The position numbers were made by a program, and so were the translations under genes. A stretch of 64,000 bases of DNA from Candidatus Omnitrophota bacterium (GTDB taxonomy: Bacteria > Omnitrophota > Gorgyraeia > Zapsychrales > Fredricksoniimonadaceae), in contig JADFZK010000006.1 in NCBI GenBank assembly GCA_015232565.1, positions 796-64,795 of the forward strand, given 5' to 3'. Below, piece after piece: positions 4,940 through 42,726 of the stretch (its first letter is position 1; the number at the start of each line of letters is the position of its first letter). The notes under the pieces were generated by a model. That model did no database searches and was not told the DNA's origin. It saw only the letters and a list, made by a program, of their open reading frames with translations.

Positions 4940-6247
4940 GTGCCGGCCAGGGAACCCGAGGAGACGAAAGTGCCAGTACAAACTGAATACGACGATACTA
5001 AAGCCAAACTTCATCGGTATCTGATATCCAAGACTGATTTTATCAAGGTCAAAGATACCCTGAACGATGACCAGATGCGTTTGTATGTGGATGCTGCTAT
5101 TACGGCCTTGTCTCGTGAGAATGATATTATGATCACGCTGGAGGATCGTTTAAAACTGATCCGTGAGATCGCCAGTTCGGTTATGAGCCTGGGTCCCATT
5201 CGGCCTTTGCTGGAAGATAAGGAAGTGACCGAGGTCATGATAAACGGCTATCGGCAGGTTTACGCCCAGAGGTCGGGAAAGATGTTTTTGACCGGGATCA
5301 CTTTCGATGATAATGCGCATCTTATGCATACTATTCAGAAACTTATGGCGGCTTCGGGCACTTCGCGCCGGGTAGATGAGTCGTCTCCTTATGTTGATTT
5401 TTCGCTGAATGATGGCTCACGGGTTAACGTGCTTCTGCCGCCCTGTTCCATGGTGGGACCGGTGGTGACGGTAAGAAAGTTCTCCCGGGATATCTCCACC
5501 GTTGACAATCTGGTTGATCTGGGTACTTTGAGCCGGGCGATGGCTACGTTTTTGATAGCCGCGGTCAAAGCCAAGCTTAATATTGTTTTTTGCGGGGCGA
5601 CCGGTTCCGGAAAGACTACGGTGCTCAATGTGCTCTCCCGGCATATATCCGAGGACGAACGGATCATCACTATTGAAGATACTTCCGAATTGCGCCTTCT
5701 GCAACAGCATGTGGTGGGGTTACAGTCTAAATCAGTGAATATTGAAGGCAAGGGCGCGGTTTCGATCCGCGACCTGTTCATTAATTCCCTGCGTATGCGC
5801 CCGGACCGGATAATTATCGGCGAGGTGCGCGGCGAGGAGATCCTGGATATGATCCAGTCGATCAGTTCCGGCCATTCCGGCACTATGGCTATCGTGCATG
5901 CCGATTCACCCGAGGAATGTTTTAACCGGATGATCACTATGATGCTGATGTCGGGCATTCGTTTAAGCGGCGAGCAGGTGCGCCGCCAGATCGCGACCTC
6001 TATTGAACTTATTGTGTACACCGAGCTTTTTATGGACGGGGTACGCCGGATCGTAAATATTACGGACCTGCGTTTTGACAAGGAAACCGACCGGGTTTCC
6101 CTGGAGGATATTTTCAAGTTTAAACAGGAACATATCGACCCGAATGGCAAGGTGCAGGGGCATTGGGTAATGAACAAGAAATTGCCTTCTTTTGCCGACA
6201 AGTTCGCCAAACGCAATGTGCGTTTGCCGCAAGAGTTTATGCAATAA
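4940..6247 (+). CDS. CpaF/TadA-family secretion ATPase (VirB11-like), orphan
   Basis: Walker A VFCGATGSGKTTVLNVL, ERIITIEDTSEL and RMRPDRIIIGEVRGEE motifs characteristic of TadA/CpaF. No other tad genes are adjacent. Confidence 0.8.
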   Translation: MPAREPEETKVPVQTEYDDTKAKLHRYLISKTDFIKVKDTLNDDQMRLYVDAAITALSRENDIMITLEDRLKLIREIASSVMSLGPIRPLLEDKEVTEVMINGYRQVYAQRSGKMFLTGITFDDNAHLMHTIQKLMAASGTSRRVDESSPYVDFSLNDGSRVNVLLPPCSMVGPVVTVRKFSRDISTVDNLVDLGTLSRAMATFLIAAVKAKLNIVFCGATGSGKTTVLNVLSRHISEDERIITIEDTSELRLLQQHVVGLQSKSVNIEGKGAVSIRDLFINSLRMRPDRIIIGEVRGEEILDMIQSISSGHSGTMAIVHADSPEECFNRMITMMLMSGIRLSGEQVRRQIATSIELIVYTELFMDGVRRIVNITDLRFDKETDRVSLEDIFKFKQEHIDPNGKVQGHWVMNKKLPSFADKFAKRNVRLPQEFMQ

Positions 6248-9135: not shown

Positions 9136-11625
9136 ATGTTAGTAAGGGATCTGGCGAAACAATATAATATCACCGAAGAGTTGATTACCGCTACGTTAAA
9201 GGCTACCAAATTGCGCGCCAAGGGCGAGGATCAGGAGCTTAGCCCGGGTGTGTTGATGGTGCTGAAGGGCGAGCTGGAGAGCAAGGGGTTGATCCCCAAG
9301 CAGGAGCCCGACAAGAAGGCGGTTAAAAAGCCTGCGGTTAAAAAGCCTGTCCTGCAAAAGCCGGTGGCGCAAAAAAATACGGTTGAAGCGGTAGCTCAAC
9401 CGGCACGTAAGAAAAAAGAGCCTGAGCCTGTTAAAGAGCCGGTAAAAGAAAAACCGGTCTTTGTTACTGTCCGTAAACTTTCCGAGGTGCCGGTACGGAA
9501 GCCTGTTGAGCCTCCGCCGCCGGTGGTAAAAATTGAGCCGCCGGCTCCGGTGGAAGTGGTCAAGGTTGAGCCGTTAGCGCTCAAGCCGGTGGGGCATACC
9601 GAAACTACCGAAGAACATACCGTAGACGAGCAAGGCCGCAAGATCATTAAAAGAGTGACCAAGACCATTGTTACGGTCACCAAAAAGAAAGTGGCTCCGG
9701 CGGCTCCGGCTTTTGTAGCGGTTCAGCCGTTGAAGAAGCGCCTCACCAGGGAAGATCGTTCGGCTTCCATGGATGTGCGTTCTCCAGCGGAGGATGCCAG
9801 CGGCCAGCCGACGGATGCCGTGGCGGGCGCTCCGGCTGTTGCGGCCAAGGCAGAAGGCCCGTTAAAAGATGTGGAGATCAAGTTGCCTGTTACTGTCGGC
9901 GATCTGGCCTTCAAGATGCAACATAAAGTAAATATTGTCCTCAAAGCCTTAATGGGCATGGGGGTTTTTGCCAATATTAACCAGAACCTCGGCGAAGATA
10001 TTGTCCGTAAGCTGTGCCAGGGTTTTGGTTTTAATCTTATCGAGATCAAGTCCCAGGAAGAACAGCTTATTGCCGATCATACCAAGGAACAGGAAGACCC
10101 TTCTCTTTTACAACCGCGCGCTCCGGTAGTTACTTTCATGGGGCATGTGGATCACGGTAAGACTTCCCTGCTGGATGCTATCCGCAAAACCAAAGTGGTC
10201 GACAGTGAGCATGGCGGGATAACCCAGCATATTCGCGCGTACTCGGTAAAGGTGCCGCGGGGTACGATCACTTTCATGGATACTCCCGGTCACGCGGCTT
10301 TTACGGCCATGCGTTCCCGGGGTGCGCATATCACTGATATTGTAGTACTGGTGGTGGCCGCTAATGAAGGCATAATGCCGCAAACTGAGGAAGCGATAGA
10401 CCATGCCCGGGCCGCCGGTGTTCCGATAGTGGTGGCGCTTAACAAGATCGATCTGAAGGACGCGGATCCGGAAATGGTCAAGAAGCAGTTGATGGAACAT
10501 GATCTGATGCCTGAAGAATGGGGCGGTAAGATAGTGGTCTGCCCGGTCTCGGCACAAACCGGACAGGGGTTGGACAATTTGCTGGAAATGATCCTGCTGG
10601 AGTCCGAGATGTTGCAGTTAAAAGCCAATCCGGACAAAAAAGCGGCGGGTATAGTGGTGGAAGCGCATATGAGCACCGGTAAAGGCCCTCTGGCGACCTT
10701 GATCGTGCAAAACGGCACCTTGCGCGAGGGTGATATTGTGGTGGTGGGGCCTTTTTGTTCTAAAGTCAAGGCGATGTTCGACGACCATAAACGTCAGGTT
10801 AAATTGGCCGGGCCGTGTATGCCGGTGGAGATCCTGGGTTTGCCGGGAGTGCCGGAAGCCGGTGAGAAGTTCTTTGTGATGGAGAACGAGAAAGCCGCCC
10901 GGGAGATAGCATCTGTGCGTGAAGAAAAAATGAAGACCGACCGCCTTAAGGAGTCGTCCAAGATCACACTCGAAGCTTTATTCGCCAAGCGCGAAGCGGG
11001 TGAGGTGCGCGAGTTGAATGTTATCATTAAGGGTGACGTGCAGGGTTCGGTGGGGGCTTTGCGTACCGCTTTGGAGAAGATCACCAGTGAGAGCAAAGAA
11101 GTGGCGGTGAAGTTTATTCATAGCGGTGTGGGCGAAGTTAATCCTTCCGATATTATTCTGGCCCATGTTTCCAAGGCTATTATTATAGCGTTTAATGTTG
11201 GCACCAGTTCTACGGCCGCCGATGAGCTGGAAAAGACTCCGGTCGAGGTGCGTCGGTACAATGTTATTTATGATATTGTCAATGATATCCGCGTTGCTCT
11301 GGAAGGCATGCTTAAGCCGGATACCAAGCGTCATTTTTTGGCGCGGGCCGAAGTGCGTCAGGTGTTCAACCTGACCAAATCCGGCATTGTGGCGGGTTGT
11401 TTTATGCTTAAGGGGCGTATGCGCACCAAGATGAATGTTGATGTAATGCGTAATGCTGTGGTGGTGCATACCGGCAAGCTGATCACTCTTAAACGGTTCA
11501 AGGATGACGTTAAGGAGGTCGGCGAAGGTTTTGAATGCGGTATAGCTGTTAGCGGTTACGATGGTTACCAGCCCGGCGATATGATAGAAGCTTTTGAGAT
11601 CGAGAATATCGCAAGGACCTTATGA
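9136..11625 (+). CDS. infB: translation initiation factor IF-2
   Basis: G-domain VTFMGHVDHGKTSLLD, DTPGHAAF and NKID motifs; Lys/Pro-rich N-terminal region; 829 aa. Confidence 0.93.
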   Translation: MLVRDLAKQYNITEELITATLKATKLRAKGEDQELSPGVLMVLKGELESKGLIPKQEPDKKAVKKPAVKKPVLQKPVAQKNTVEAVAQPARKKKEPEPVKEPVKEKPVFVTVRKLSEVPVRKPVEPPPPVVKIEPPAPVEVVKVEPLALKPVGHTETTEEHTVDEQGRKIIKRVTKTIVTVTKKKVAPAAPAFVAVQPLKKRLTREDRSASMDVRSPAEDASGQPTDAVAGAPAVAAKAEGPLKDVEIKLPVTVGDLAFKMQHKVNIVLKALMGMGVFANINQNLGEDIVRKLCQGFGFNLIEIKSQEEQLIADHTKEQEDPSLLQPRAPVVTFMGHVDHGKTSLLDAIRKTKVVDSEHGGITQHIRAYSVKVPRGTITFMDTPGHAAFTAMRSRGAHITDIVVLVVAANEGIMPQTEEAIDHARAAGVPIVVALNKIDLKDADPEMVKKQLMEHDLMPEEWGGKIVVCPVSAQTGQGLDNLLEMILLESEMLQLKANPDKKAAGIVVEAHMSTGKGPLATLIVQNGTLREGDIVVVGPFCSKVKAMFDDHKRQVKLAGPCMPVEILGLPGVPEAGEKFFVMENEKAAREIASVREEKMKTDRLKESSKITLEALFAKREAGEVRELNVIIKGDVQGSVGALRTALEKITSESKEVAVKFIHSGVGEVNPSDIILAHVSKAIIIAFNVGTSSTAADELEKTPVEVRRYNVIYDIVNDIRVALEGMLKPDTKRHFLARAEVRQVFNLTKSGIVAGCFMLKGRMRTKMNVDVMRNAVVVHTGKLITLKRFKDDVKEVGEGFECGIAVSGYDGYQPGDMIEAFEIENIARTL

Positions 11626-16644: not shown

Positions 16645-16673
16645 TTGACAATTCATCAATTGCTTTGTAATAT
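16645..16673 (+). promoter_or_regulatory. consensus sigma70-type promoter (TTGACA-17 nt-TAATAT) upstream of spoVG
   Basis: TTGACA at 16645-16650 and TAATAT at 16668-16673 with a 17 nt spacer, in the AT-rich divergent intergenic region. A strong RBS AGGAGGTGGACATG lies ~36 nt downstream. Confidence 0.45.
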
Positions 16674-16709: not shown

Positions 16710-16979
16710 GTGGACATGTCGTTAGAGTTCAAGGTGGCCAAGATGTTCTGTTTACCGGATGCCGGAAGTTTAAAAGCTTTCGCGGACATTATGGTGAACG
16801 ACGCATTGCTTATTAAGGGCTTGCGGGTTGTGGAAGGTAAGAAAGGGCTTTTTGTTACGATGCCGCGGGAACAGGGCAAAGACAGCAAATGGTACGACCA
16901 GGTGTCTTGCGCGTCGGCAGAGATCTTTGATGATATCGCAACTAAGGTGCTTTCCGAGTATCAGGCGGTAGCGGTTTAA
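16710..16979 (+). CDS. spoVG: septation protein SpoVG
   Basis: KAFADIMVNDALLIKGLRVVEGKKGLFVTMP matches the SpoVG family core; 89 aa; strong RBS. Confidence 0.8.
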   Translation: MDMSLEFKVAKMFCLPDAGSLKAFADIMVNDALLIKGLRVVEGKKGLFVTMPREQGKDSKWYDQVSCASAEIFDDIATKVLSEYQAVAV

Positions 16980-17013
16980 GTTTTTAAGCGCGGGACGCCT
17001 CAAGTGGCTTATT

Positions 17014-17161
17014 GGGGCGTAATACGAACGATCCAGCAAATAATGTATGCCATTAATCCATGTACGCCTTTCTCGATCGGACGAGGGGGCTGGGGGGCGT
17101 GTTTTATAAACATCATAACGATGGGCAGGCATTAATGATGCGATCTTTCGAATTACGCCCC
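17014..17161. repeat. imperfect 20-nt inverted repeat pair (18/20) spaced ~108 nt apart, upstream of the first pilin operon
   Basis: GGGGCGTAATACGAACGATC (17014-17033) and GATCTTTCGAATTACGCCCC (17142-17161) are reverse complements. Confidence 0.4.
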
Positions 17162-17233
17162 GATAGCCGCGGGAGGTCGGCGCAGTTCTCAGGTTAAGAT
17201 CAAATAACAGTTCAATTTTAAAGACGAGGGCAT

Positions 17234-17665
17234 ATGAACAATAAAGGTTTCTCTTTGGTCGAGATGGCGATTGCTTTGGGATTAGTGGCGGTCCTGGTAA
17301 GCGTGGTAACAGCGGGTAGCGGAATGATGGTCAAAAGCCGGGTACATCGTGAAACTGCGGCAGTGGATAGTATGCGGATCGCCGCGCAGAATTATTTATC
17401 GGCCAAGAACCTGACTTATACCGGCATCAGCGTGGCCGCGCTTAAGACGGATGGTTTTCTGCCGGCCAATTTTGATCCGGTTAAAAGCAATTCCTTTGGC
17501 GGTGACTATTTGGTGGCCGAGAATGCGGCGGATAATACCAAAGTTGATATTACTCTGGCCGCGGTGCCGGCGGCTGCTGGTGCTGATCTAAGCAATAATT
17601 TCAAAAGTAAAGCGGAACTGCTGGCTTATGACGCCTCTACCAAGGTTTGGAAAGCTACTTTTTAA
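17234..17665 (+). CDS. type IV pilin/pseudopilin with prepilin-type N-terminus
   Basis: MNNKGFSLVEMAIALGLVAVLVSV: a Gly-Phe cleavage site, Glu+5 and a hydrophobic helix. Confidence 0.75.
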   Translation: MNNKGFSLVEMAIALGLVAVLVSVVTAGSGMMVKSRVHRETAAVDSMRIAAQNYLSAKNLTYTGISVAALKTDGFLPANFDPVKSNSFGGDYLVAENAADNTKVDITLAAVPAAAGADLSNNFKSKAELLAYDASTKVWKATF

Positions 17666-18098
17666 CAATAAGGGCGGCTGGCTGGTGGAGCTGGCAGTGG
17701 CTTTGGTGATCGCGGGAATGTTTGTCGGCGGCCTGGCCAGTTTGGCCAAAGTACAGTTGAATGCGGCCCGGGCCAGGCACACTTTGACCACCATGCGATC
17801 AATACTTAAGGCCGGACAGGATTATCGCGTTTTGCATGGAGTATGGCCGGCAGATATTAAGGAAGTTGAAGCGCTTTTAGCATCTTCTGTCGGAAAGAAT
17901 GCCTGGGGCGGACTGTTTTGGCTTTCTCATAGTGAGGGCCTGGCGTGGGTGGAGACCGATGTACCGTCAGGTGTGGCTGTGCCCCAGGGGCCATGGACGG
18001 CGGTTTATGTTTCCGGTATCGGTGCCGGAAGCCGCTGGCGAATGTCCACCCCCTTGTCCTACGGATTTACCGCGAGGCTGGTTTATGAGACGAAATGA
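17628..18098 (+). CDS. pseudopilin-like protein with atypical leader (…NNKG|GWLVELAVALVIAG)
   Basis: There is no start codon between the upstream stop and the pilin-like helix, so it must start at ATG 17628, overlapping the previous gene by 38 nt. Glu+5 is present, but Trp replaces the canonical Phe. Confidence 0.55.
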   Translation: MTPLPRFGKLLFNNKGGWLVELAVALVIAGMFVGGLASLAKVQLNAARARHTLTTMRSILKAGQDYRVLHGVWPADIKEVEALLASSVGKNAWGGLFWLSHSEGLAWVETDVPSGVAVPQGPWTAVYVSGIGAGSRWRMSTPLSYGFTARLVYETK

Positions 18099-18975
18099 CG
18101 GATTTACATTGTTAGAATTGGCGATCGTGCTGGCCGCTACCGCATTAATAGCCGGCGCAGTAGTGCCTTCATTTATAAAGTCAGCTTTTGTCGATGCCGC
18201 ACGGCGAGCCGCTTTGGAGGTGTCTCAGGTCCAGGAAGCCTCCCGGGCGTATTATGTAAAGAAGAAGGCCTGGCCGGTGGATATTGCGGCTTTAAAGATT
18301 GAAGGTTACCTTGATCCAGCCTGGAGTGGAATTAATCCTTTTGGTAAGCCATACATTCTGGAGCAATCGGGCGAAGTGATGCTGGTCAAGACCGAAGTGA
18401 AGAATGAGGTTGCCGGTGTTTTGCTGGGCACATTGCCTATGTCGGCTCTGAATGCGGGAAGTGTAGTTTCAGGCGTGACTGTTCCCGGTATTGATACGGC
18501 CAATTTACCGGTGGGGGCGGTTATGGCCTGGCCGGTAATGGATATTCCGGCAGGCTGGTTGGTTTGCGACGGCCGGCGGGTTGACCGGCGTGAACATGCC
18601 GAGTTGTTTGCTTTGCTGGGAGTGAATTATGGCGCGGGCGATGGTGCGACTACATTTAATATCCCGGACTTGAGGGGCCGGGCGGTGGTAGGGCTGGACA
18701 ATATGGGTGGTAGTGTGGCCAATGTCATTATGGGTTCCTGGGCCAGGAAGATCGGTGAGAAGTGGGGTGAAGAGACGCATGTTTTGACCACTATGGAAAT
18801 GCCTTCCCATACGCATCCGTATCTGGAAACTCCCTGGCAGGGCGGCCGTTACGATGGCCATTCTTCGCCAGTAATGACGGGTCAGCAATGGTCCACAACA
18901 TTTCCGGCCGGCGGCGGCAAGGCCCACAATAATATTCAACCGTCCATTGCTTTGAACTGGATCATTAAAGGATGA
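18085..18975 (+). CDS. prepilin N-terminus fused to a phage tail-collar (microcystin-dependent protein, MDP) domain
   Basis: Internal ATG 18085 gives MRRNDGFTLLELAIVLAA (canonical prepilin motif); the track ORF start at 17899 is an upstream extension. The C-terminus carries tail-collar motifs: PAGWLVCDGR, LFALLGVNYGAGDG, TTFNIPDLRGRAVVG, HTHPY, GGGKAHNNIQPS. Confidence 0.7.
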   Translation: MRRNDGFTLLELAIVLAATALIAGAVVPSFIKSAFVDAARRAALEVSQVQEASRAYYVKKKAWPVDIAALKIEGYLDPAWSGINPFGKPYILEQSGEVMLVKTEVKNEVAGVLLGTLPMSALNAGSVVSGVTVPGIDTANLPVGAVMAWPVMDIPAGWLVCDGRRVDRREHAELFALLGVNYGAGDGATTFNIPDLRGRAVVGLDNMGGSVANVIMGSWARKIGEKWGEETHVLTTMEMPSHTHPYLETPWQGGRYDGHSSPVMTGQQWSTTFPAGGGKAHNNIQPSIALNWIIKG

Positions 18976-19880
18976 AGCCGTTCAAGAATATTTCAGCCCT
19001 GATCTTATTGTTGGTAAGCAGTGCTTTTCCATTTGCCGCTCGGTCCGAAAGTTTGGCGGTACTGACCGGGAGGGCCGACTGGAATTGTGTGCGCTTGGAG
19101 CTTACCGGCCAGGCCTGCAGCCGGGTAGCCCCGCCCTATGCGGGCGTAATGATGCGTTATTGGCAACCGGTCTTAATGGTGGAAACGGTCAAGAGGCCGG
19201 GCGACACCGCGGTTAATGAATACCGTTCCTTGCTGGGAGAACCGTTAAAACAAATGGCGGCAACGGCCATGGGGGCGGGGAGCGCGAATATGGACAGCGG
19301 ATCGGGGTACTCGGCAGATACCACGGCGGTGCAAATGAGTGATGTGCATGTGATGGGGTTTCCGGCTTCCAGCATATTTTCGGCGATCATTGAACCGGTT
19401 TGCGAAGGCTCTCCCGAACTGTCGAGCTCAGTCAGTTATCTTAGTGAAAGAGATGCCGTGGAATGGCGGACGCTCAAGAATGAATCCCGGCATCCAATGT
19501 CTTTGCTGTCCGCGGCTATGGCTCCGATGTGCGAGGGCGGACAGATAACTACTCCGGGGATGTGCATTGGGGTTTGGGGGCCTTTGTATCCTCGAGGCGG
19601 TTTTATTGCCGGTTATAGCCCGGTTGTGGGTTCGGCGGCTTTGGCTTACCGGGGTGTGGATATAGCCTCGATCAACCCTTTATCGGTTTTTCATAGCCGG
19701 GTAATGCCTTTGCTTTTTGTTCCGGATCCTTTCTGGGACAGAATGCAGATGGTTTATCCGCAAGCTTCCCGGTGCCTGAAGATCGGGGAGGATCCCCGTA
19801 CCTGGGAACAGGATCGGGTTTCAGCAGACGGGAAATATGTATGGATATACTGGCGCAAAAAAGAATGCTGTGCGTTGTGA
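18972..19880 (+). CDS. Cys/Trp-rich secreted protein, possibly of the TraU family (F-type pilus assembly)
   Basis: Signal peptide MKPFKNISALILLLVSSAFPFAA; about 10 Cys and many Trp. The C-terminal motifs MCIGVWGPLYPRGG and YVWIYWRKKECC resemble my recollection of TraU-family conserved blocks. That assignment is from memory only. Confidence 0.5.
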   Translation: MKPFKNISALILLLVSSAFPFAARSESLAVLTGRADWNCVRLELTGQACSRVAPPYAGVMMRYWQPVLMVETVKRPGDTAVNEYRSLLGEPLKQMAATAMGAGSANMDSGSGYSADTTAVQMSDVHVMGFPASSIFSAIIEPVCEGSPELSSSVSYLSERDAVEWRTLKNESRHPMSLLSAAMAPMCEGGQITTPGMCIGVWGPLYPRGGFIAGYSPVVGSAALAYRGVDIASINPLSVFHSRVMPLLFVPDPFWDRMQMVYPQASRCLKIGEDPRTWEQDRVSADGKYVWIYWRKKECCAL

Positions 19881-20227
19881 TATTGGCGGGTCTGGGGCTG
19901 GCGGGCAACCTGGCGAGTGCCGATGACTCGGCAAGAAAATACGGCCTTTCGGCACTGGATTATTTTAGCCGGGTGAAGTTACAAGATGCAGGACGGGCGG
20001 AATTTTTGGCTGATGAACTGTGGGGTGAGGCAAGTCGTTTGCCGGGAGGATCAGTTGAGGTCCATTACCCGCCTGGCCCGGTATTGGATTTTTTACAAAC
20101 GCCCAATGCTGAAACCGGGCGGCGCTATTTACGCTGGAACGAGCTTCGGCTGGAGAAGATCCAAAAGGCCCAGGAAGTGTTGAACAAAATGATCGAGGAT
20201 CCACCTGGTGCGGCGGACGTTCATTAG
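19841..20227 (+). CDS. small secreted hypothetical protein
   Basis: An internal ATG gives MDILAQKRMLCVVILAGLGLAGNLASA, a signal peptide. The ORF overlaps the upstream gene's end. The start is uncertain; ATG 19865 is an alternative. Confidence 0.5.
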   Translation: MDILAQKRMLCVVILAGLGLAGNLASADDSARKYGLSALDYFSRVKLQDAGRAEFLADELWGEASRLPGGSVEVHYPPGPVLDFLQTPNAETGRRYLRWNELRLEKIQKAQEVLNKMIEDPPGAADVH

Positions 20228-20256
20228 AAACCATGATAAACCAGAAAGGTATTTTT

Positions 20257-20694
20257 ATGTTCAAACGATTAATGTTGGTTTTAATCTGTACGATCTTGTG
20301 CGCGTCGATAACCCGGGCCGAGGATGGTACGGACGAGCTGGTGCGGTTACGCCGGCAAGCCCAGGATGAACGCCGTAAAGAAGAACAGATCCAGATGATG
20401 CGGCTGGAACTGGAGAAGCTGAAGCTGGAGGTGGAGACTCGCAAGACCATGGTTGAAATGGGTATGGCCGGGGCGGTGTCTTCACCGAGCGGAGTAGCCA
20501 ATATCACCGTTGAAGTAAAGAATATAGTAGTCAGTCCGGAAGGCGCCAGCGCCGTACTGGAAGTTGGCGGCAGCAGGCAAATGGTTAAAGCGGGAGATGC
20601 GGCTGGCCCGTATACAGTCAAAAGCATCACTGCAAACGAAGTGGTTTTGGTTGATGCCAAGGGCGGGGAGCTGAGGAGCACTTTGCGTATATGA
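20257..20694 (+). CDS. secreted coiled-coil protein (PilP/GspC-like accessory?)
   Basis: MFKRLMLVLICTILCASITRA signal peptide, preceded by AGAAAGG. A charged coiled-coil segment followed by a beta-rich C-terminus. The track start is 20233. Confidence 0.5.
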   Translation: MFKRLMLVLICTILCASITRAEDGTDELVRLRRQAQDERRKEEQIQMMRLELEKLKLEVETRKTMVEMGMAGAVSSPSGVANITVEVKNIVVSPEGASAVLEVGGSRQMVKAGDAAGPYTVKSITANEVVLVDAKGGELRSTLRI

Positions 20695-22238
20695 GCCATT
20701 TACGCTTAGGAGGCCTGTTGTTGGCCGCGGATATCGTTACCCGGAGCGAAGTGGATTTTGCCGCCGCGATACAAGCGGCCAGTGTCCGATCCGACAAGAT
20801 CGGGGCTATTCTGGTGGATCAAGGTTTGCTAAGCCGCGACAGCCTGGCCCGCACCTTGGCCGAACAGGCGGGTTGGGAATTCTTTGGCGGCCAGTACCTG
20901 CCCGACCAGGAAGCGGCCGAGAAGATCGGCCTGGCTTTCATTAAAGAGCATTGGGTCTTCCCGTTAAAAGTCACCGAGGGCTATGGTTTTGTATTTTCCG
21001 ATGGCGATAATACCCGGGCTACCGACCGGTTGCTTGGTTGTTTTGGCAGTGCGGTGCGGTTCTTTGTGGGTGAGGAAGCTTGTATTAAAGACGCTATTGC
21101 CGCGCTGGAACGGCGCCCGGGCGGGGACATTGCCGGTGGACTGACGGATATTAAGCATTTACTGGATGAGGCGGCGGCTAACGGCGCCACCGACATTCAT
21201 ATTGAACCGGCTGATGCGACTGTAAATGTGCGTTTAAGGATCGATGGTGTTCTGCATTTTTATCGGGCCTATCCACGCACGGAACTGGCCAGAATAGTTA
21301 ATATGGCCTTTAATCGTGCGGGCCTAAGCGCCGGGGATGTCCTGCGGTTTCATGACGCTCGTTTCGAGGAAGAATGCGCCGGGCGCAAGCTGGATATCCG
21401 GCTTTCGCATTTGCCATCGGCCAATGGTTCATCGCTGGTCCTGCGGATTCTGGATAAATCCCGCAGCGCGGTACCGCTGGCCGAGCTGGGCTATTCGGAT
21501 CTGAATCAGCGCCAGCTGGTTAAGGCTATCCGACGGCCGCATGGGCTGGTACTTTTCACCGGACCGACGGGTTGCGGCAAGACTACCAGCCTGTATTCAC
21601 TTTTAAGCGGCTTAAAAGGGCTGGGTATAAAGGTGGTTACCGCGGAAGATCCGGTAGAGGTGCGGGTGCCTCTGGTGACCCAGGTCCCGGTTGACTTGCG
21701 GCGCGAACAGGATTTTCATCATATTACCCGGGCTTTATTAAGGCACGACCCCGATGTGGTACTGATCGGCGAGATCCGTGACGAGAAGACTGCCCGGGAA
21801 GCATTACGCGCGGCAGTGACCGGGCACCGGGTGCTGGCGACTTTGCACACCAATGATGTAATGGGCGCGATCTTGCGTTTGCGTGACCTGGGGATCGATC
21901 ATGCGTATATCAGTCATGCGTTGACTTGTATTGTGGCCCAAAGGCTGGTGCGGAAATTGTGCCCGGAATGTAAGGAATTCGCCGGCCCCGGTGAGGGGTT
22001 TGTCCATCACGAGCCGGGTTGTCCGGCGTGTTTAGGTGGTTATAGAGGCCGCACAGTTGCGGCCGAGGTAATGTATGTGGATGACGCTATGCGGTTTCTT
22101 ATCGAGCAGGGTCTTATCCAGGAGGTGGCAGTAAAATATCAACAGGATCCCGGCAGGCTAAGCATGCGGGCTGATGCCGAGCGCCTGGTACGGGAAGGCC
22201 TGGTAAGTAAACTGGAGATCGAAAGGGTATTCGGATGA
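20691..22238 (+). CDS. GspE/PilB-family secretion ATPase (set 1)
   Basis: T2SSE N-terminal domain, Walker A FTGPTGCGKTTSLYSLL, GEIRDEKTA, and a tetracysteine CPEC...CPAC motif. Confidence 0.9.
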   Translation: MSHLRLGGLLLAADIVTRSEVDFAAAIQAASVRSDKIGAILVDQGLLSRDSLARTLAEQAGWEFFGGQYLPDQEAAEKIGLAFIKEHWVFPLKVTEGYGFVFSDGDNTRATDRLLGCFGSAVRFFVGEEACIKDAIAALERRPGGDIAGGLTDIKHLLDEAAANGATDIHIEPADATVNVRLRIDGVLHFYRAYPRTELARIVNMAFNRAGLSAGDVLRFHDARFEEECAGRKLDIRLSHLPSANGSSLVLRILDKSRSAVPLAELGYSDLNQRQLVKAIRRPHGLVLFTGPTGCGKTTSLYSLLSGLKGLGIKVVTAEDPVEVRVPLVTQVPVDLRREQDFHHITRALLRHDPDVVLIGEIRDEKTAREALRAAVTGHRVLATLHTNDVMGAILRLRDLGIDHAYISHALTCIVAQRLVRKLCPECKEFAGPGEGFVHHEPGCPACLGGYRGRTVAAEVMYVDDAMRFLIEQGLIQEVAVKYQQDPGRLSMRADAERLVREGLVSKLEIERVFG

Positions 22239-23260
22239 ACGACCGCGCGCTGGCAATATTTTTCCGGGATATGGCTAATATGCTGATTTCAGGTATCGGC
22301 CTGGAACATTCATTAAGGACCTTAAGTGAAACGGCCATGCAGGAGGGGGCGCGTCGTATGTGCGCCGGGGCTTTGGCAAGATTACAGGGTGGTGTTTCCC
22401 TTTCTGACGCCCTCGCGGCTTCGGGGGTTCTGCCGCGGGAAGCCTTAATGTCAATATCTGCCGGTGAGACCGCCGGTGAGTTGCCCGACGTGTTCAATAT
22501 GTTAGGAAATTATTTTGAACTTAAAGCCGCAATGCGCCAAAAAGCGCTTTCAGCTCTGGGTTATCCGGTCCTGGTAATGGTCATTATGCTGGGAGTCTTG
22601 TTATATATGGTGGTTGAGGTCCTGCCTAAAGTGGCGGTGCTTTTGCCGTCCGGTGCTTTTGACTCTCCGGTGACCAGTGCACTGGTGGCGGCGGCCTGGT
22701 TCCTGAAGTCCTGGGGATTGTTGACCGGCGGTTTGCTGGCTTTGGGCGTGGGTGCGTTACTAATGCTGGCACGTTATAAAATGGCGGAATTGCGAATTAT
22801 GATCTCCCGGATCCCTTTTTTGAGTCAACTGGTAAAAGAACAGGAATTGGCTTTGGGTTTTTTTGCCTTGTTCGTTCTGCAGAAAAGCGGAGTAAACCTG
22901 GAAAGGGCTTTACGCGAGGCGGCAGAGGTGGCGGGGGGCGCGACCCGACAGCATTTGCGGGATTGTTCTGCTTATTTGGTCGGTGGGCTGGCACTATCCG
23001 AAGCGGTACGCCAGGACCGGTATTTTCCGCGCTTCACCGCCGATACTTTGCGTATCGGGGAGGAGTCCGGGCGTTTTGCGGAGTACTTTGAGCGTTTATT
23101 CCAGGTTTTTTACCGGATGTTCCAGTCCAGAATGAGCTGTTTGGCCGGAGCGGTGCGGCCGGTCATGCTGGCAGTCTGCGGCGCATTCATAGCGCTAATT
23201 GCCGTCGGTTTCTTACAGCCTTTGTATGGCAACCTTACGGGTATTGCCGCGCCGCAGTGA
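22235..23260 (+). CDS. GspF/PilC-family inner-membrane platform protein (set 1, short form)
   Basis: T2SSF-type repeats and TM segments; 4-nt overlap with the ATPase gene; 341 aa. Confidence 0.8.
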   Translation: MNDRALAIFFRDMANMLISGIGLEHSLRTLSETAMQEGARRMCAGALARLQGGVSLSDALAASGVLPREALMSISAGETAGELPDVFNMLGNYFELKAAMRQKALSALGYPVLVMVIMLGVLLYMVVEVLPKVAVLLPSGAFDSPVTSALVAAAWFLKSWGLLTGGLLALGVGALLMLARYKMAELRIMISRIPFLSQLVKEQELALGFFALFVLQKSGVNLERALREAAEVAGGATRQHLRDCSAYLVGGLALSEAVRQDRYFPRFTADTLRIGEESGRFAEYFERLFQVFYRMFQSRMSCLAGAVRPVMLAVCGAFIALIAVGFLQPLYGNLTGIAAPQ

Positions 23261-34622: not shown

Positions 34623-36203
34623 ATGGTACCCACGCAGAAACTAGGCATATATTGGGGCAATACCGGCATTAGCCTGGTAGAGCTCAGCAAGGACGCGGTC
34701 GTTAACTCGGCCTTTGTGTCCTTTGCCGATATGGAAGCCAATGCCGTGGTGGGGTTAAGCACCATAAACGCAGATTTGCGTTTGCTCGACATAGTGCAAA
34801 GGACCTTGCGTTCCAGTTCTTTCTCGGTGGGTAATGCTTACCTGTCGCTTCCGTCCAAAGACATTATTGTGCGCTGGTTTGTTATACCCTGGGTAAAGCC
34901 CGATGAAGTTCAGGGTATGGTGTCGTTCGAGGCCAAGAAATATCTGCCCTTTGCCATGGACGAGCTCTTTTTTAATTATTACCCCTCGACCATCACCAAG
35001 GACGGCACCCGCAAGATCGGCATAGTGTTGACGGCCATTCGCAAGGTGCATTACGAGCGTTATTACAATGTGCTGGTGCAGGCTGGTATCAACGTGGTGT
35101 ATAGCGAGCCGTCGGCCATGAGCCTTTTGCGCACCATGGTGTACCGCAAGCTGGTGAATACCGAGCAAACCAGCGCGATCCTGATAGCGCGGGAAGAATC
35201 CTGCGAAATAGTGATTGCCTCCAAAGGTCATATCCGGTTCATCCGGGATTTCTCATTGCGGCCGGCCCAGGCGGGCACCGAGGAAAATAGCGACGATCTT
35301 TTTCGCCTCAAGTTCTTTAACGAGATCCGGATGTCGCTGGATTTCTTTTCCCGTGACAACGGCGGGCAGGATGTGGCCAAGATCATAGCGGTGTCTTCGG
35401 GGCTTAAGCTTTCGTTCTTCGATGGCATGTCCGAGGATGTGGGCCTGCCCGTGCAGGTTATGGAGCATTTTCAGGTCCTGGAGAATACCAATGCGCTGGT
35501 GGACATAGGGTATTTACGGGCTTTTGGCGTGGGGCTTTCGGGACAGGTGCCCACGGTAATAGATTTTAATTTGAGCGAAGGCAATGTACACGGCGGTGCC
35601 AAGAAGGCCGAAGGGGCCCGGCCGCCGCTCATTCCGCCGCAAGCCTTACTGGTAGCGGCGGTGGTCTGTTTGTGCGCGGGGTTGCTGGCGGCCAGCTGGT
35701 GGTGGATAAACGGCCAGATGCAGAAAGAGCAGGCGCTTAAGCAGGAAGTGTCTGCCCGCCTGGGGCGAAATTTGGATACTCCGCGGGAAGATTTTGACAG
35801 CAAGATAACTTTGTTGAATAAAAAGATCGAAGCGGTAAAAAGTTTGCCTTTAAAAAGGGCCCTGGCGGATTTCTTTGTTTATTTCGTCAAACTGATGCCG
35901 GCGGGCATGTGGTTTGACAATGTGGATATTGCGTACACCAGTACCAGCCAGGGCGGCGCGGCGCCCAAAAAGCTTTCGGCGGCGGATTATTATGTGGTCA
36001 AGACTTCGGCTCGCATGTCCATAACCGGTTTTGCTTCGCTGGGCGATACCAATGCCGAGTTTGAGCTGGTAAACCAGTTCGTGGTAAAATTACGTAACGA
36101 TGCGCGGATAAAACAACTGTTCCCCGACGTGAAGCTTAAATCGCTTCAGGCGCGGGATACCGGAGCCAAACAAAAGATCACCGCGTTCACCATAGATTTC
36201 TAA
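34623..36203 (+). CDS. pilM: type IV pilus assembly protein PilM fused to a PilN-like TM/coiled-coil module
   Basis: About 330 aa of actin-like PilM domain, followed by a TM helix (LLVAAVVCLCAGLLAASWWWI), a coiled coil and a periplasmic domain; 526 aa. Confidence 0.75.
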   Translation: MVPTQKLGIYWGNTGISLVELSKDAVVNSAFVSFADMEANAVVGLSTINADLRLLDIVQRTLRSSSFSVGNAYLSLPSKDIIVRWFVIPWVKPDEVQGMVSFEAKKYLPFAMDELFFNYYPSTITKDGTRKIGIVLTAIRKVHYERYYNVLVQAGINVVYSEPSAMSLLRTMVYRKLVNTEQTSAILIAREESCEIVIASKGHIRFIRDFSLRPAQAGTEENSDDLFRLKFFNEIRMSLDFFSRDNGGQDVAKIIAVSSGLKLSFFDGMSEDVGLPVQVMEHFQVLENTNALVDIGYLRAFGVGLSGQVPTVIDFNLSEGNVHGGAKKAEGARPPLIPPQALLVAAVVCLCAGLLAASWWWINGQMQKEQALKQEVSARLGRNLDTPREDFDSKITLLNKKIEAVKSLPLKRALADFFVYFVKLMPAGMWFDNVDIAYTSTSQGGAAPKKLSAADYYVVKTSARMSITGFASLGDTNAEFELVNQFVVKLRNDARIKQLFPDVKLKSLQARDTGAKQKITAFTIDF

Positions 36204-36233
36204 TCAGTGTTGAACGAGCAAAACTGATCGTAG

Positions 36234-36413
36234 GGGCCGACCTAGTGTGGTGATTCATATATCTCTTTACATTTGAATCACCACACTGGAGCAATGGAGC
36301 AATCGAAAATGGAGAAATATTAAAACATTTGGCTCCATTGCGGTCTATTTTCGATTTTCCAATGCTCTTCAAATGTAAAGAAGCGTCAGACACACTACAC
36401 TAGTGTCGGCCCG
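36234..36413. repeat. nested imperfect inverted-repeat element (~45-nt arms with internal perfect 13-bp stems); possible structured RNA, MITE or cruciform
   Basis: Arm 36234-36277 (GGGCCGACCTAGTGTGGTGATTCA…TTTGAA) is the reverse complement of arm 36368-36413. Inside: a 13-bp perfect stem GTGTGGTGATTCA/TGAATCACCACAC, a GGAGCAATGGAGCAAT direct repeat, and GCAATGGAGC/GCTCCATTGC pairing. Confidence 0.5.
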
Positions 36414-36492
36414 GTATGAGATGCGAATAGAGATGCAAACATTTACCGAAGGACGGAGATAAGCTCCGCCCCTAACGTTAGCAGGGCGCACA

Positions 36493-37161
36493 ATGGTTCA
36501 GTTTAAATTCAACGACAATAATGCTTTTGGCGGAGTTGGCAAAATGGGCGGAAAGAGCCCGGTGGCCATGCCGTCCAAGCTCACGGTGGAAAGCGTTAAG
36601 GAGTTTGCGCTTAAGCGTAAGGCCGAAACTTTTTGCGTGGTGCTGGTGCTGGTGACCGGGATCGTAGTCTGGTTGTTTATCACCTCGCAGTTGCAAAAGG
36701 TCAGCCAGATTAAAAGTGATGTGCAATTGTTGCTCGATAAAGAAACAGTCATCGCCAAGTTCAACAAGGTATCTACCGAAGGCGCGGCTCTAATGGGCAC
36801 TGTGCCGGGCGCTTTACCGGAGAACAGGTTCATTACCCAGCTGACAGCGCTGGCTAACAAGCGCAATGTTGCGGTTACGGCAATTTCGCCGCCAAGCACC
36901 AAAGACAGCGGGTTCTTTCGGTATATCAGCACCCAGCTTTCCTGCTCGGCCGACAATTTTAATGATGCTTTACTTTTCATAAACGACGTAGACCAGTCCG
37001 AGTTCGCGCTAAAAGTGGATTCCTGGAAAGTGCGGCAGGCGGGCGCGGCTGATTTTAGCAATACAGTTAACCCCGCCGGAGCTTCTGGCCGGCTGGACAT
37101 GGTGATAGTGGTTTCTTCTATCGATATACTGGGCAATGAAAAGGCCAAAAGTGCGAAATAG
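36493..37161 (+). CDS. PilO/GspM-like bitopic pilus assembly protein
   Basis: Single TM (FCVVLVLVTGIVVWLFI), coiled coil and periplasmic domain; position between pilMN and pilP/pilQ. Start uncertain. Confidence 0.5.
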   Translation: MVQFKFNDNNAFGGVGKMGGKSPVAMPSKLTVESVKEFALKRKAETFCVVLVLVTGIVVWLFITSQLQKVSQIKSDVQLLLDKETVIAKFNKVSTEGAALMGTVPGALPENRFITQLTALANKRNVAVTAISPPSTKDSGFFRYISTQLSCSADNFNDALLFINDVDQSEFALKVDSWKVRQAGAADFSNTVNPAGASGRLDMVIVVSSIDILGNEKAKSAK

Positions 37162-37627
37162 CGGAACAATTCTATTTATCGGTTTTTTTCTGGCCTTCGG
37201 CCTGGGTCTATTCCCGGTGCGTGCGCTGGCTGCGAATGCCCAGCTCGATGCGGTAGGCGCTTTGGAACTGGCCATTATCAATCTGGCCGATCCTTTTAAG
37301 TCGAAGATCAAGGTGGTGGTGGAACCGGTGATAGTTAAGCCGGCGGTTAAGCCGGAAGCTCCTCCTCCGCCCGTAAAGAAAGATCCACCCAAGGTGGAGA
37401 TCAAGCCGGTACTGCCGCCGGTCATTACTTTACCGGCCATGAGTTTGACCGGGATAATGTTCAGCAAGGTTCGGCCGATGGCCATAATTAACGGCGAGGT
37501 GGTGGAGCCCGGGGATTCTTTGGCGGCGGGCAATGGAGTGGTTAAGCTGATCGAGATAAAAAGGGACAGTGTGCTGGTGACTTATTCCGGCAAGACTTTT
37601 ACTATAGCTACAAGCCAGGAGGAATGA
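37136..37627 (+). CDS. PilP-like pilot lipoprotein (signal peptide, Pro-rich linker, C-terminal beta domain)
   Basis: MKRPKVRNSGTILFIGFFLAFGLGLFPVRALA; a PPPPVKKDPPKVEIKPVLPP linker; directly upstream of the secretin. Confidence 0.5.
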   Translation: MKRPKVRNSGTILFIGFFLAFGLGLFPVRALAANAQLDAVGALELAIINLADPFKSKIKVVVEPVIVKPAVKPEAPPPPVKKDPPKVEIKPVLPPVITLPAMSLTGIMFSKVRPMAIINGEVVEPGDSLAAGNGVVKLIEIKRDSVLVTYSGKTFTIATSQEE

Positions 37628-39060
37628 TGATCAGACAGCGGTTGATACTGCTTTTTTCGTTTTGCTTTTTTTTGCACACCGGGCTTTTGTATGCGGCCAA
37701 GGGGGAAACGGCGGGTTTTGTTCTGCCGCAATATTCCCAGCGGATCTCCCTGGACTTCAAGGGGGCCGACCTGAAAGACGTGCTGAAAGTTTTTTCCAAA
37801 CAGATCGGGGCCAATTTTATTTTCGACAAAGACGTGCAAATGGGCACCACCACGGTTTTTCTGGATAATGTGCCGGTGGAAGAAGCCTTGATGCAGGTGT
37901 TGGAGTCCAACGGCCTTACTTACGAGTACAATGAAGGCATGAACCTTTTTGTGATCAAGACCAAAAAGGAGGACGAGGAAACGTTGGTAACCCGGATGTA
38001 TCCGCTTAATTACGCTTCGGTGGATTCGTCAAAAATGAAACTTACCGGTGGCACCAGCAGTGGTGCTATTGGTGCTTCCTTAAAATCTGTGTTATCGTCA
38101 AAGGGCAAAGTCGTGGACGATGCGCGTACCAACAGCCTTATTGTTTCCGACCTGGAGAAGAACTTCCCGGAGATCGAGCGCATGATCGCGCGACTGGATG
38201 TGCCGCTTAAACAGGTTTTGATCGAGGTAGAGATGCTGGATGTTTCCAAGAGCACCTCCGATACGCTGGGTGCGAGATTTAATCTGGTAGGTAGCTTTAA
38301 GACCGGCACCATGACAACTCCGTTTCCTTTTAATAATCTGGCTAACAAAAACGAGACTGACGGGCGGACGTTTGAGCCGGCGACTTTAACTCTTTCTGAA
38401 GCGGGTGTTGTATTAAGTTTTTTGAAGAGCAAAACAGATACCATCAGTCTGGCTCGTCCACGAATAACGACCAATGAGAATGAAACTGCAACTATTCAGA
38501 TAGCCACCGATGAAGCTATCGGCATTAAAACTACTACAGCTACAGATACTACTTCACCCGGGCAAGAAGTTGAGCGCTATCAAACCGGAGTTTTTCTGAC
38601 TGTTACGCCACAGGTTAATAGATTAACCAATGAAATTTCCCTGGCAATTGAACCTAGAGTTATTGATGCTTCGATCGAGAAAACTTTTAATGGTATTGAT
38701 TATAAAAACCCCGAAGAACGTAGTGTGAAGGTGATGTTACGGGTACCTAACGGGCAATCCGTTGTTATTGGTGGTTTACTGAGGCGTACAAAGTCGGACG
38801 GACGCACTAGTGTGCCCTTCCTTGGTAGTTTGCCATTGATCGGTGCTGCTTTTCGGAGTTCCGAAAAAGAAAACAATGACCGCGAGTTAATGGTTTTCTT
38901 AACGCCTTATGTACTGGAATCCAGCCAGCCTTTACCGCAAGAGTTAAAGACCGAGATCAATAAACAGTTGCAACTTCGTGAACAAACTACGTCCGACCTG
39001 CGCAGTGGGGCAGTTAACCGCGAGCTGGATATGCTTAACCGTTTCAACAAGGAACGCTAA
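37624..39060 (+). CDS. pilQ: type IV pilus secretin
   Basis: Signal peptide; an N0/secretin-N-like region; C-terminal secretin domain motifs (VPFLGSLPLIGAAFRS…ELMVFLTPYVL). Confidence 0.85.
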   Translation: MMIRQRLILLFSFCFFLHTGLLYAAKGETAGFVLPQYSQRISLDFKGADLKDVLKVFSKQIGANFIFDKDVQMGTTTVFLDNVPVEEALMQVLESNGLTYEYNEGMNLFVIKTKKEDEETLVTRMYPLNYASVDSSKMKLTGGTSSGAIGASLKSVLSSKGKVVDDARTNSLIVSDLEKNFPEIERMIARLDVPLKQVLIEVEMLDVSKSTSDTLGARFNLVGSFKTGTMTTPFPFNNLANKNETDGRTFEPATLTLSEAGVVLSFLKSKTDTISLARPRITTNENETATIQIATDEAIGIKTTTATDTTSPGQEVERYQTGVFLTVTPQVNRLTNEISLAIEPRVIDASIEKTFNGIDYKNPEERSVKVMLRVPNGQSVVIGGLLRRTKSDGRTSVPFLGSLPLIGAAFRSSEKENNDRELMVFLTPYVLESSQPLPQELKTEINKQLQLREQTTSDLRSGAVNRELDMLNRFNKER

Positions 39061-39068
39061 GGGTAAAT

Positions 39069-40802: not shown

Positions 40803-40805
40803 TTT

Positions 40806-42038: not shown

Positions 42039-42216
42039 GTTTTGTAAATATGGGTGTGCACGCGGCGTTCTTTGGTAATACTAAAAAATCACTTTTCTCT
42101 TTTATATTCAACTTTGTGTGCGATAATATTTTCATTAACTCAATACCCAAAGCTACGAAAGGAGACTAAAGGTTTCGAAAGATAAATATCATATACCAAA
42201 ATTAAAAGGAGATCTT

Positions 42217-42669
42217 ATGAACAAAAAAGGTTTTACGCTGATCGAAATCATCATAGTAATCGTTATTCTGGGCGTACTGGCTACGCTGGCCTTGCCGCGT
42301 TTGACGGCGCAGGTTGCTGCTTCCGAAGCCGCTGAAGCTATGCAATTTTTGGGGGTTATTAAGCGTGCCGCTTATTCATGTTATGACTCAGCTGGCAACT
42401 ATGAGAATTGTCAAACCAATACCCAATTAGGCGTGATCATTCCTGGAGGGGCTAAGTTTTCCTATTTCAGAGATGTTGTCACGTCTGGTGATGCGACTGC
42501 AACCTGGTGGGCTAGGGCGACACGTGCAACAAATACTGGAATTATGATGACTGTTGATAGCCAGGGCGTAACATCTTTTGGGGCAAACCCTGAGGGACCT
42601 TTCTTGGGAATTGTTAATAAAACTGGTTCAACAGTTGCTTGGGCTGCAATACCCGCGGATGCGTTTTAA
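42217..42669 (+). CDS. type IV pilin (probable major pilin)
   Basis: MNKKGFTLIEIIIVIVILGVLATLALPR; strong RBS AAAAGGAGATCTTATG; AT-rich leader; followed by a strong terminator. Confidence 0.8.
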   Translation: MNKKGFTLIEIIIVIVILGVLATLALPRLTAQVAASEAAEAMQFLGVIKRAAYSCYDSAGNYENCQTNTQLGVIIPGGAKFSYFRDVVTSGDATATWWARATRATNTGIMMTVDSQGVTSFGANPEGPFLGIVNKTGSTVAWAAIPADAF

Positions 42670-42685
42670 TTTAAACAGTTAGAAA

Positions 42686-42722
42686 GGAAGGCGGCTTGCA
42701 CTCAGGGCGCCTTCCTTTTTTC
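42686..42722 (+). terminator. rho-independent terminator after the major pilin gene
   Basis: GGAAGGCG-loop-CGCCTTCC followed by TTTTTTC. Confidence 0.65.
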
Positions 42723-42726
42723 TTCT

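Follow-up and report, generated by a model that had tools for sequence, protein, structure and literature searches.

What would a bacterial pilin do with the tip of a phage tail fibre at its end? The question is raised by one gene, at 18085..18975 on the forward strand of a 64,000-nucleotide stretch (the window) of contig JADFZK010000006.1, from the Candidatus Omnitrophota assembly GCA_015232565.1. An earlier note, made from the letters of this DNA, described the product as a prepilin fused to a phage tail-collar (Collar) domain and proposed that it is a receptor-binding module displayed at the tip of a pilus. We find that the fusion is real and that this reading is essentially right: of the readings considered, it is the one best supported by the domains, the predicted folds and the conserved block of pilin, GspE and GspF genes in which the gene lies. 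The protein is probably a modular minor pilin that caps its filament as a trimer, through a fibre-tip head, and attaches the cell to a partner, as part of a domesticated conjugative pilus module.

The pilin and fibre-tip halves of the fusion

The gene is one stop-free open reading frame (ORF) of 296 codons. Had the pilin-like helix belonged to a separate upstream ORF, or had the tail-collar match failed, the idea of a fusion would have fallen; neither is the case. The translation of 18085..18975 runs from the pilin helix into the Collar part without a frameshift or stop, and every prepilin and Collar motif quoted in the note is found in the 296-amino-acid (aa) product. The ATG at 18085 is favoured as the start because a GAGG Shine-Dalgarno sequence lies 7 nt 5' of it, it is overlapped by the preceding pilin2 gene, whose stop is at 18098, the starts of orthologues match its position, and the identical protein in NCBI nr is called at 296 aa. 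A longer ORF from an in-frame ATG at 17899, up to which the frame stays open, was ruled out by the ribosome-binding site, the overlap with the pilin2 stop and the N-termini of homologues. The parts of the gene are as follows.

18085..18975 (+): pilin-Collar fusion, predicted modular minor pilin; leader aa 1-6, pilin aa 7-132, linker aa 133-143, fibre tip aa 144-296
18085..18480 (+): prepilin leader and pilin fold; MRRNDG / FTLLELAIVL..., alpha1 helix aa 9-60, four-stranded sheet
18514..18684 (+): phage tail collar domain, aa 144-200; Pfam PF07484, per-residue model confidence (pLDDT) 94-97 in the domain model
18808..18816 (+): HxH motif H242-T-H244, putative inter-subunit metal site, from conservation and the gp12 alignment
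18823..18906 (+): most variable segment, aa 247-274, candidate ligand-contacting surface, from column entropy

The N-terminus, in which the leader MRRNDG is followed by FTLLELAIVLAATALIAGAVV, has the short basic leader, Gly(-1), hydrophobic +1 residue, Glu(+5) and stretch of ~20 hydrophobic residues of a class III signal. The profile search that the note had recommended places both of its domains above their gathering scores. At the N-terminal end, N_methyl (PF07963) matches aa 1-26 with 24.0 bits against a Pfam gathering score of 21.2, and the NCBIfam prepilin cleavage/methylation domain TIGR02532 reaches 19.7 bits against a cut-off of 16.3. Structure prediction, likewise recommended, and fold search recovered both a pilin fold and a fibre-tip fold. 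The full-length AlphaFold2 monomer, built with 20 homologues (a shallow alignment), has a helix at aa 9-60 and strands at aa 91-95, 98-104, 120-123 and 126-132; its pLDDT per 10-residue block is 80-92 over aa 11-110 and 72-73 over aa 111-130. Foldseek matched the pilins 1ay2, 4pe2 and 6xxd with probabilities of 0.91-1.0, at E-values of only ~0.05, and a profile search of the PDB found geopilin, GspG and PilE at E 1e-5 to 5e-4; gonococcal pilin, C. difficile PilA1 and Thermus PilA4 are among the pilins recovered by these searches. G(-1), F(+1) and E(+5) are kept, together with the Collar motifs, in 19 full-length or nearly full-length homologues at 37-67% identity. As judged from these profiles and models, the N-terminal half is a type IV pilin module.

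For the other half, PF07484 matches at 74.9 bits against a gathering score of 24 (E 4.9e-21), over profile positions 1-56 of 57. The homology to phage tips reaches past this 57-residue Pfam domain: minor tail proteins of cultured phages share 41-43% identity with the 162-aa module across 95% of it. Modelled by itself with 74 sequences, the C-terminal module has a pLDDT of 85 and shows the collar and head fold, with the conserved HxH motif, of a gp12-type tail-fibre tip. In the full-length monomer model the head is poor (pLDDT 34-63 over aa 181-240, and 34-36 over aa 201-230), which would be compatible with obligate oligomerisation and is no proof of it. Among homologues, H242 is invariant and H244 at least 90% conserved, and HMMER aligns the motif with 'YHKH' of T4 gp12 (chain residues 116/118 of 1ocy), which correspond, by residue arithmetic, to His445 and His447. 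In trimeric fibres, HxH motifs from three chains form octahedral Fe/Zn sites (PMC6116203). By homology and modelling, the last 160 aa make up an entire phage tail-fibre tip, consisting of a collar domain and a putative HxH metal-binding head.

The head is also where the protein varies most. Column entropy peaks at 2.1 bits, the maximum for the protein, over aa 247-274, against 1.1-1.2 bits in the Collar, HxH and C-terminal segments. This stretch lies between the HxH motif and a conserved C-terminal GGxxxHNNxQPS...IK motif, and it is present in several unrelated sequence versions among homologues. Three relatives (locus L007 at 10001-10903, and proteins P0247 and P0289) have the pilin and Collar parts common to the family and a wholly different head after PDL[RK]G, and are therefore evidence for swapping of head modules at a fixed junction. 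A head that varies and can be replaced in this way would be the pattern expected of a swapped and selected ligand-binding tip. Diversification by a shufflon or a diversity-generating retroelement (DGR) was considered and rejected: a repeat search between positions 15.5 and 24 kb of the window found no shufflon cassettes or DGR template repeats, only short two-copy matches of a kind that often arises by chance, and there is no room for invertible cassettes because the pilin-Collar gene overlaps the start of the next gene, which encodes a TraU-like protein. A phage, prophage or tailocin context was rejected as well; no structural gene of a phage, prophage, tailocin or injection system is present in the window or the related loci, where the neighbours are pilus genes and type IV secretion system (T4SS) genes.

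How widespread is the fusion? The search for homologous fusions that the note had called for uncovered a conserved family, so the window protein is not a one-off. A word-indexed search returned 153 relatives, most of them matching the Collar part alone; about 20 clusters (at 90% identity) are full-length, with 34-67% identity, and those that carry an organism name come from Candidatus Omnitrophica. When 1.84 billion representatives were searched exhaustively with HMMER, about a dozen 50%-identity clusters of ~300-aa proteins aligned end to end, all with a prepilin-type N-terminus. Among 185,579 species-representative genomes, scanned with a 9-sequence alignment, the fusion occurs in only 4 loci, three labelled Omnitrophica/Omnitrophota and one Planctomycetales. 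On plasmids, tblastn against 72,556 records matched the Collar part alone, with no record reaching 80% or more of the query. The family is real, conserved and narrow, and apparently all of it belongs to Omnitrophota. Protein P0175 (620 aa), which came from the same HMMER search and in which the canonical T4a-type prepilin N-terminus MKSRG followed by FTIVELLVVIAIIGILAA precedes three tandem collar-plus-head modules, is clearly an independent pilin-Collar fusion. The representative library also holds giant proteins (P0153-P0160), which reach 4,832 aa and as many as 20 separate tail-collar stretches and rank above the true fusion family in the HMM search.

The gene block and its relatives in conjugation operons

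The pilin-Collar gene is the third gene of a co-directional, tightly packed block that also holds two other pilin genes and the GspE/GspF pair. The block, with a small gene that may precede it, reads as follows.

16710..16979 (+): SpoVG-like small regulator, tentatively the first gene of the unit (NCBIfam SpoVG E 6e-13)
17234..17665 (+): pilin1, candidate major pilin, 143 aa (N_methyl 25.7 bits, above the gathering score)
17628..18098 (+): pilin2, divergent pilin-like protein, candidate minor pilin, ~140-156 aa (weak GspG match, E 6e-4)
18972..19880 (+): TraU-like periplasmic protein with a signal peptide and 8 Cys (Pfam TraU 101 bits, E 9e-29)
19841..20227 (+): orfX, ~128 aa, with a signal peptide and no Pfam match; homologues in all loci, always after TraU
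20233..20694 (+): PilP-like protein, 153 aa (TIGR03021 pilP_fam E 3e-6, 28.2 bits against a cut-off of 34.65)
20691..22238 (+): GspE/PilB-family assembly ATPase (T2SSE E 3.6e-96), with a degenerate MshEN-type N-terminus
22235..23260 (+): GspF/PilC-family platform, short form, 341 aa (T2SSF E 2e-40, two repeats)

Pilin1 matches TIGR02532 at 23.1 bits and PilS_N weakly (E 5e-4, below the gathering score), and is the best-conserved pilin of the block, 78% identical to its counterparts in loci L001 and L004. The slot of pilin2 between pilin1 and the pilin-Collar gene is conserved in relatives; G(-1) and E(+5) are present in four of five pilin2 N-termini (window, L001, L003 and L004), and the fifth, MKRAASLLE of L084, fits the prepilin pattern only with A at -1. 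The start of the TraU-like gene overlaps the pilin-Collar stop (ATGA), and its product scores 62 bits, below the cut-off, against TIGR03756. The PilP-like protein is homologous to p147/p154 of the full elements described below.

This arrangement recurs. The string pilin1-pilin2-pilin/Collar-TraU-orfX is contiguous and in the same order in 7 loci; six more lack a BLAST match for pilin2 or orfX, or are cut off by the contig end. In every relative examined, the TraU-like gene stands directly 3' of the pilin-Collar gene and the GspE-GspF pair accompanies the five-gene string, on one side or the other. Fuller versions (L006, L007 and L084-L089) have a small lipoprotein, a secretin and two or three accessory proteins upstream of GspE, and a ~400-aa protein after orfX; the element secretin scores 210 bits against MshL and 148 against PilN. 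Directly upstream of this fuller module lies a VirB4/TraC ATPase (L006, L007 and L085). Upstream of TraC, L089 (481-10897) carries a VirB2/TrbC pilin, TraL, TraE, TraK and TraB/TrbI in that order, preceded by a RelE/HTH toxin-antitoxin pair; L086 carries TraV, and in L090 (798-11581) an IS110 transposase, the anti-restriction protein ArdC and the single-stranded DNA-binding protein SSB stand ahead of TraE-K-B-V-C. We infer from these gene orders that the full form of the module occupies an insertion point between TraC and TraU in an F-like conjugative T4SS operon carried by a mobile element.

These relatives supply a context that the note had missed. It correctly placed the fusion beside GspE/GspF machinery, but the next gene is TraU-like and the fuller relatives have an F-like T4SS operon; the module is neither a classical type IV pilus (T4P) nor a type II secretion system (T2SS). 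Support for an R64-type T4bP assignment is weak, with PilS_N and PilP_fam matches below threshold, a secretin that scores higher for MshL than for PilN, and an ATPase with an MshE-like N-terminus. Nor did TraU emerge as a general T4P partner in other phyla: its word-indexed search gave only 32 homologues, all three contigs read carried the same module, and most of the other homologues are on contigs that match those of pilin-Collar hits in length.

The window itself holds a reduced version. An accessory-T4P minor pilin within a conjugative element describes L089, L085-L088, L006 and L007, whereas the window has no T4SS genes around its fusion: of the F-type set TraL/E/K/B/V/C/U it has TraU only, and no other Tra homologue was found in the 64 kb or in the 20-kb loci L001 and L004. 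Compared with the full elements, the cluster also lacks the secretin, p365 and p393. One reduced layout is shared by the window, L001 and L004; a second, in L003 and L005, keeps the same core. In the window the block is flanked by housekeeping genes, nusA-infB-trpS-scpA-ruvB-spoIID on one side and glnB-amt-panC-uvrA on the other, and it occupies the same chromosomal site in L001 and L004. These three syntenic genomes share 57-70% protein identity; each has all eight ORFs intact, synonymous sites are saturated, and nonsynonymous divergence (dN) is 0.13-0.38, the range taken in favour of the main reading being 0.24-0.35. The reduced cluster is under purifying selection and is not decaying. TraU and orfX stay with the pilin-Collar gene even in chromosomal clusters without other T4SS genes, which suggests that they are functional parts of the pilus module and more than mere neighbours. 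We favour a domesticated pilus because the T4SS genes and a secretin of its own are absent while the core, with TraU and orfX, is kept at a fixed site under selection; this suggests that the window cluster builds a domesticated pilus for attachment to other cells, be they mating partners or the hosts or prey of these ultra-small bacteria.

Some features hint at how the module is regulated. A SpoVG gene stands upstream of pilin1 also in L001 and L004, and SpoVG homologues with 41-46% identity lie within the pilus module in L086 (8071-8349), L087 (11923-12195) and L088 (6097-6369); SpoVG may be a regulator that travels with the module. The region's best sigma-70-like site, at 16645-16673, is just 5' of SpoVG, and such sites are not enriched over shuffled sequence. 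Between SpoVG and pilin1 there is an inverted repeat (17010-17051 / 17124-17165) with 42-nt arms, 74% complementary and 72 nt apart, a possible regulatory or attenuator structure. The N-terminus of the focal GspE (20691-20870) matches the MshE-type cyclic di-GMP (c-di-GMP) motif at 35.8 bits against a cut-off of 38, a sequence match by which assembly of the focal pilus may respond to c-di-GMP.

Proposed mechanism and competing readings

How might such a protein work? The leader would be cut after Gly6 by a prepilin peptidase encoded elsewhere, and the pilin module (aa 7-132) would be inserted by the block's GspE/GspF-type ATPase and platform into a filament made mainly of pilin1. As a low-abundance pilin, the fusion would be placed at the filament tip, where three heads would trimerise around a metal bound by their HxH motifs; a three-copy arrangement of the head is the most likely one because every solved relative of the tip is a knitted homotrimer. 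The three copies would cap the pilus tip, their pilin modules making up the filament's first turn in likeness to the CofB and TcpB trimers of type IVb pili, and the exposed head, including aa 247-274, would bind a surface glycan or protein of another cell. In the parental elements, the pilin-Collar protein would choose and hold the mating partner, like PilV of IncI plasmids and PAPI-1. In the lineage of the window, the protein could target a mating partner, provided that the genome has T4SS genes in another place, or else a host or prey cell.

Several points weigh against this account. Trimerisation and the tip location are inferred, and all sequences of the family are metagenome-derived. No prepilin peptidase (A24) was found among the ~50 ORFs scanned in the window; its gene may lie in another part of the genome. 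The focal block is without a secretin, and the sole secretin of the window belongs to a separate type IVa pilus (T4aP)-like cluster and is 26% identical to the element secretin, so the case for surface exposure in the window genome is weakened; the secretin of the T4aP-like cluster could be used by the focal pilus as well. The fetched flanks of the full elements showed neither a relaxase nor a coupling protein, so that the word conjugative rests on their T4SS genes, ArdC and SSB. The T4aP-like cluster lies 12 kb downstream of the focal block (~11 kb past the end of GspF) and has the following parts.

34623-44805: second complete T4aP-like cluster, with PilM-like, PilQ, PilB, PilC and five pilins
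37136-37627: GspB/C-like protein
37624-39060: PilQ secretin
39069-40802: PilB with an MshEN c-di-GMP-binding N-terminus
40806-42038: PilC
42217-44805: five consecutive pilin genes

If the module came from a conjugative element, might it still work in one? The missing TraL/E/K/B/V/C, secretin and peptidase genes could lie elsewhere in the incomplete metagenome-assembled genome, and the fusion would then be an adhesin strictly for recipients of DNA transfer. The T4SS-linked TraU and orfX kept in every reduced locus would fit, as would the short contig of the record (just 79.5 kb) and the TadA/VirB11-like ATPase at 4940-6247. However, TraU aside, Tra homologues are missing from the window and from L001 and L004, and the cluster sits at the same housekeeping-gene site in three diverged genomes, unlike a mobile element; we hold a working conjugation or other T4SS apparatus to be unlikely. 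Fainter still are the prospects for a short, T2SS-like periplasmic pseudopilus built of the three pilins, with the Collar head in the periplasm or at the tip of a piston, binding TraU, peptidoglycan or cargo. A focal block without a secretin is what one would expect of it, and the pilins have weak GspG/GspH matches while the ATPase and platform score best against GspE/GspF models. Those NCBIfam matches are all far below cut-off, however, and the fuller relatives carry a dedicated MshL/PilN-type secretin. In every solved relative, the tail-fibre tip binds a receptor outside the cell, and variability within the protein is greatest in the head, as would be expected of an exposed ligand-binding surface.

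Database labels point in yet another direction: NCBI calls the window protein a 'tail fiber protein' and JGI calls relatives 'microcystin-dependent protein', and with an N_methyl score of a modest 24 bits the protein could be a membrane-anchored protein of that kind, its N-terminal helix a mere signal anchor. Yet G(-1), F(+1) and E(+5) are kept across the family, AlphaFold2 gives a whole pilin fold and more than a helix, the gene stands amid pilins and an assembly ATPase and platform in every locus, and one JGI relative is labelled 'microcystin-dependent protein/competence protein ComGC'. A protein that is not a pilin is very improbable on this evidence, and the cluster as a functionless, decaying remnant of an integrated conjugative element is, if anything, slightly more so. 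T4SS genes, secretin, p365 and p393 have indeed been lost relative to the full elements, but the eight intact ORFs in three genomes, with dN so low beside saturated synonymous sites, speak against decay, as do invariant key motifs and a second reduced layout that keeps the same core. We return to the domesticated attachment pilus, which can be drawn more sharply for this phylum. Omnitrophota are uncultured nanobacteria, suspected to be epibiotic or predatory, with a proposed host dependence and abundant pili (PMC10066038), and a host or prey target fits because of that proposed dependence and those pili. In this narrower form, ultra-small, probably host-dependent Omnitrophota would have domesticated a conjugative accessory pilus that has no secretin of its own, kept TraU, a periplasmic F-type T4SS protein, and orfX as working parts of it, and used the trimeric fibre tip to latch onto host or prey; we regard it as doubtful but worth serious attention. 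If true, it would mean phage-style receptor recognition by a bacterial pilus from a chimeric T4P/T4SS apparatus.

Other parts of the window touch these subjects less directly. At 4940-6247, the ATPase mentioned above is an orphan of TadA/CpaF/VirB11 type (TIGR03819 275 bits, below the cut-off) with no Tad or T4SS neighbours. Three consecutive ORFs of 451-534 aa at 50882-55483 have no Pfam match; two tetratricopeptide-repeat proteins are encoded upstream of them, and an acyltransferase and a PMT-type glycosyltransferase downstream, and the region may be a surface-glycan locus. An AbiEi-like antitoxin and an NTP_transf_8 nucleotidyltransferase, a type IV toxin-antitoxin/abortive-infection pair, lie at 58493-59981.

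Precedents and meaning for Omnitrophota

Is the fusion new? The earlier note knew of no such protein in T4P or T2SS systems, but precedents exist. The dataset of Raynaud et al. (2021) contains two singleton pilin architectures with the tail-collar domain IPR011083, one combining FN3 with three collar domains and the other PilV_N with one collar domain (PMC8179133, Dataset S1); the plain N_methyl-Collar architecture is not among the 264 catalogued there (PMC8179133). Like the modular pilins PilB and PilC of Streptococcus sanguinis, the fusion consists of an N-terminal IPR012902 module and a grafted non-T4P domain that is predicted to be tip-exposed; the grafted domains of S. sanguinis are vWA or lectin domains, whereas here it is Collar (PMC8179133). 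Milman et al. (2023) reported a PilV-tail-collar protein of Pectobacterium brasiliense, UCP91044.1, and proposed that a phage domain had been repurposed for recipient specificity in conjugation (PMC9881135). That protein also joins a pilin N-terminus to PF07484 and is encoded among pilus genes (PMC9881135). Compared by description, it differs in its Shufflon PilV N-terminal domain, its larger size (locus ~1.6 kb), its being a target of programmed inversion and its gammaproteobacterial host, whereas in the Omnitrophota family the pilin module is short and generic and an inversion system is lacking. Beyond these two sources, we found no pilin/tail-fibre fusion in the literature, and no account of this Omnitrophota family, of a T4P module inside an F-like tra operon or of TraU kept with a T4P. 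The pilin-collar principle has already been noticed; the Omnitrophota family and its conjugation-operon context are undescribed.

The closest functional parallels may be PilV and CofB. In the thin-pilus systems of PilV, the host T4SS is I-type or G-type; that of the present family is F-like (TraL/E/K/B/V/C/U), and the window has no T4SS. The PilV proteins of IncI1 R64, IncI2 TP114 and PAPI-1 are, like the fusion, minor pilins encoded after a major pilin in the pilus module of a conjugative element, and the full relatives share the order of the PilV module: secretin, accessory proteins, ATPase, platform, major pilin, adhesin pilin. The fusion differs in having no Shufflon_N domain (PF04917), whose sole match in the family loci, at E 0.031, is to pilin1 of L085; in a locus without shufflon cassettes, sfx repeats or an Rci-type recombinase; in a C-terminus that is a fibre tip; and in relatives whose secretin favours MshL over PilN. 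In PilV, the choice of partner cell lies with the C-terminal part (PMC9045228, PMC5297154), as it would in the fusion. CofB of the CFA/III pilus of enterotoxigenic Escherichia coli (ETEC) and TcpB of the V. cholerae toxin-coregulated pilus (TCP) have the same plan of pilin module, linker and C-terminal beta-rich binding domain (PMC6048534, PMC5207764), and CofB forms a trimeric initiator complex at the tip of the ETEC type IVb pilus (PMC6048534). The C-terminal domain of CofB is an H-type lectin, unlike the collar and head found here, and the PDB profile search found no sequence similarity of CofB or TcpB to the fusion, so that the likeness is one of analogy. By that analogy, the fusion would work like PilV or CofB, and it belongs to neither family. 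Among phage fibres, T4 gp12, T4 gp37 and the cyanophage A-1(L) fibre (1ocy, 2xgf and 8kec) are set apart by the shaft and baseplate attachment domain that the fusion lacks; its tip is instead joined to a pilin, with no phage or tailocin gene nearby.

Simple type IV filaments are believed to acquire new functions through modular pilins, an established concept. The present family illustrates this cleanly, the module grafted onto its pilin being an entire phage receptor-binding tip. It links three systems that recognise surfaces, namely phage fibres, conjugative mating pili and adhesive pili, and it shows a pilus module surviving as a chromosomal remnant together with TraU. Its interest would rise further if the domesticated host-attachment reading or a functional role of TraU were confirmed. 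For Omnitrophota, the swappable, fast-evolving head is a concrete candidate for a determinant of partner or host specificity.

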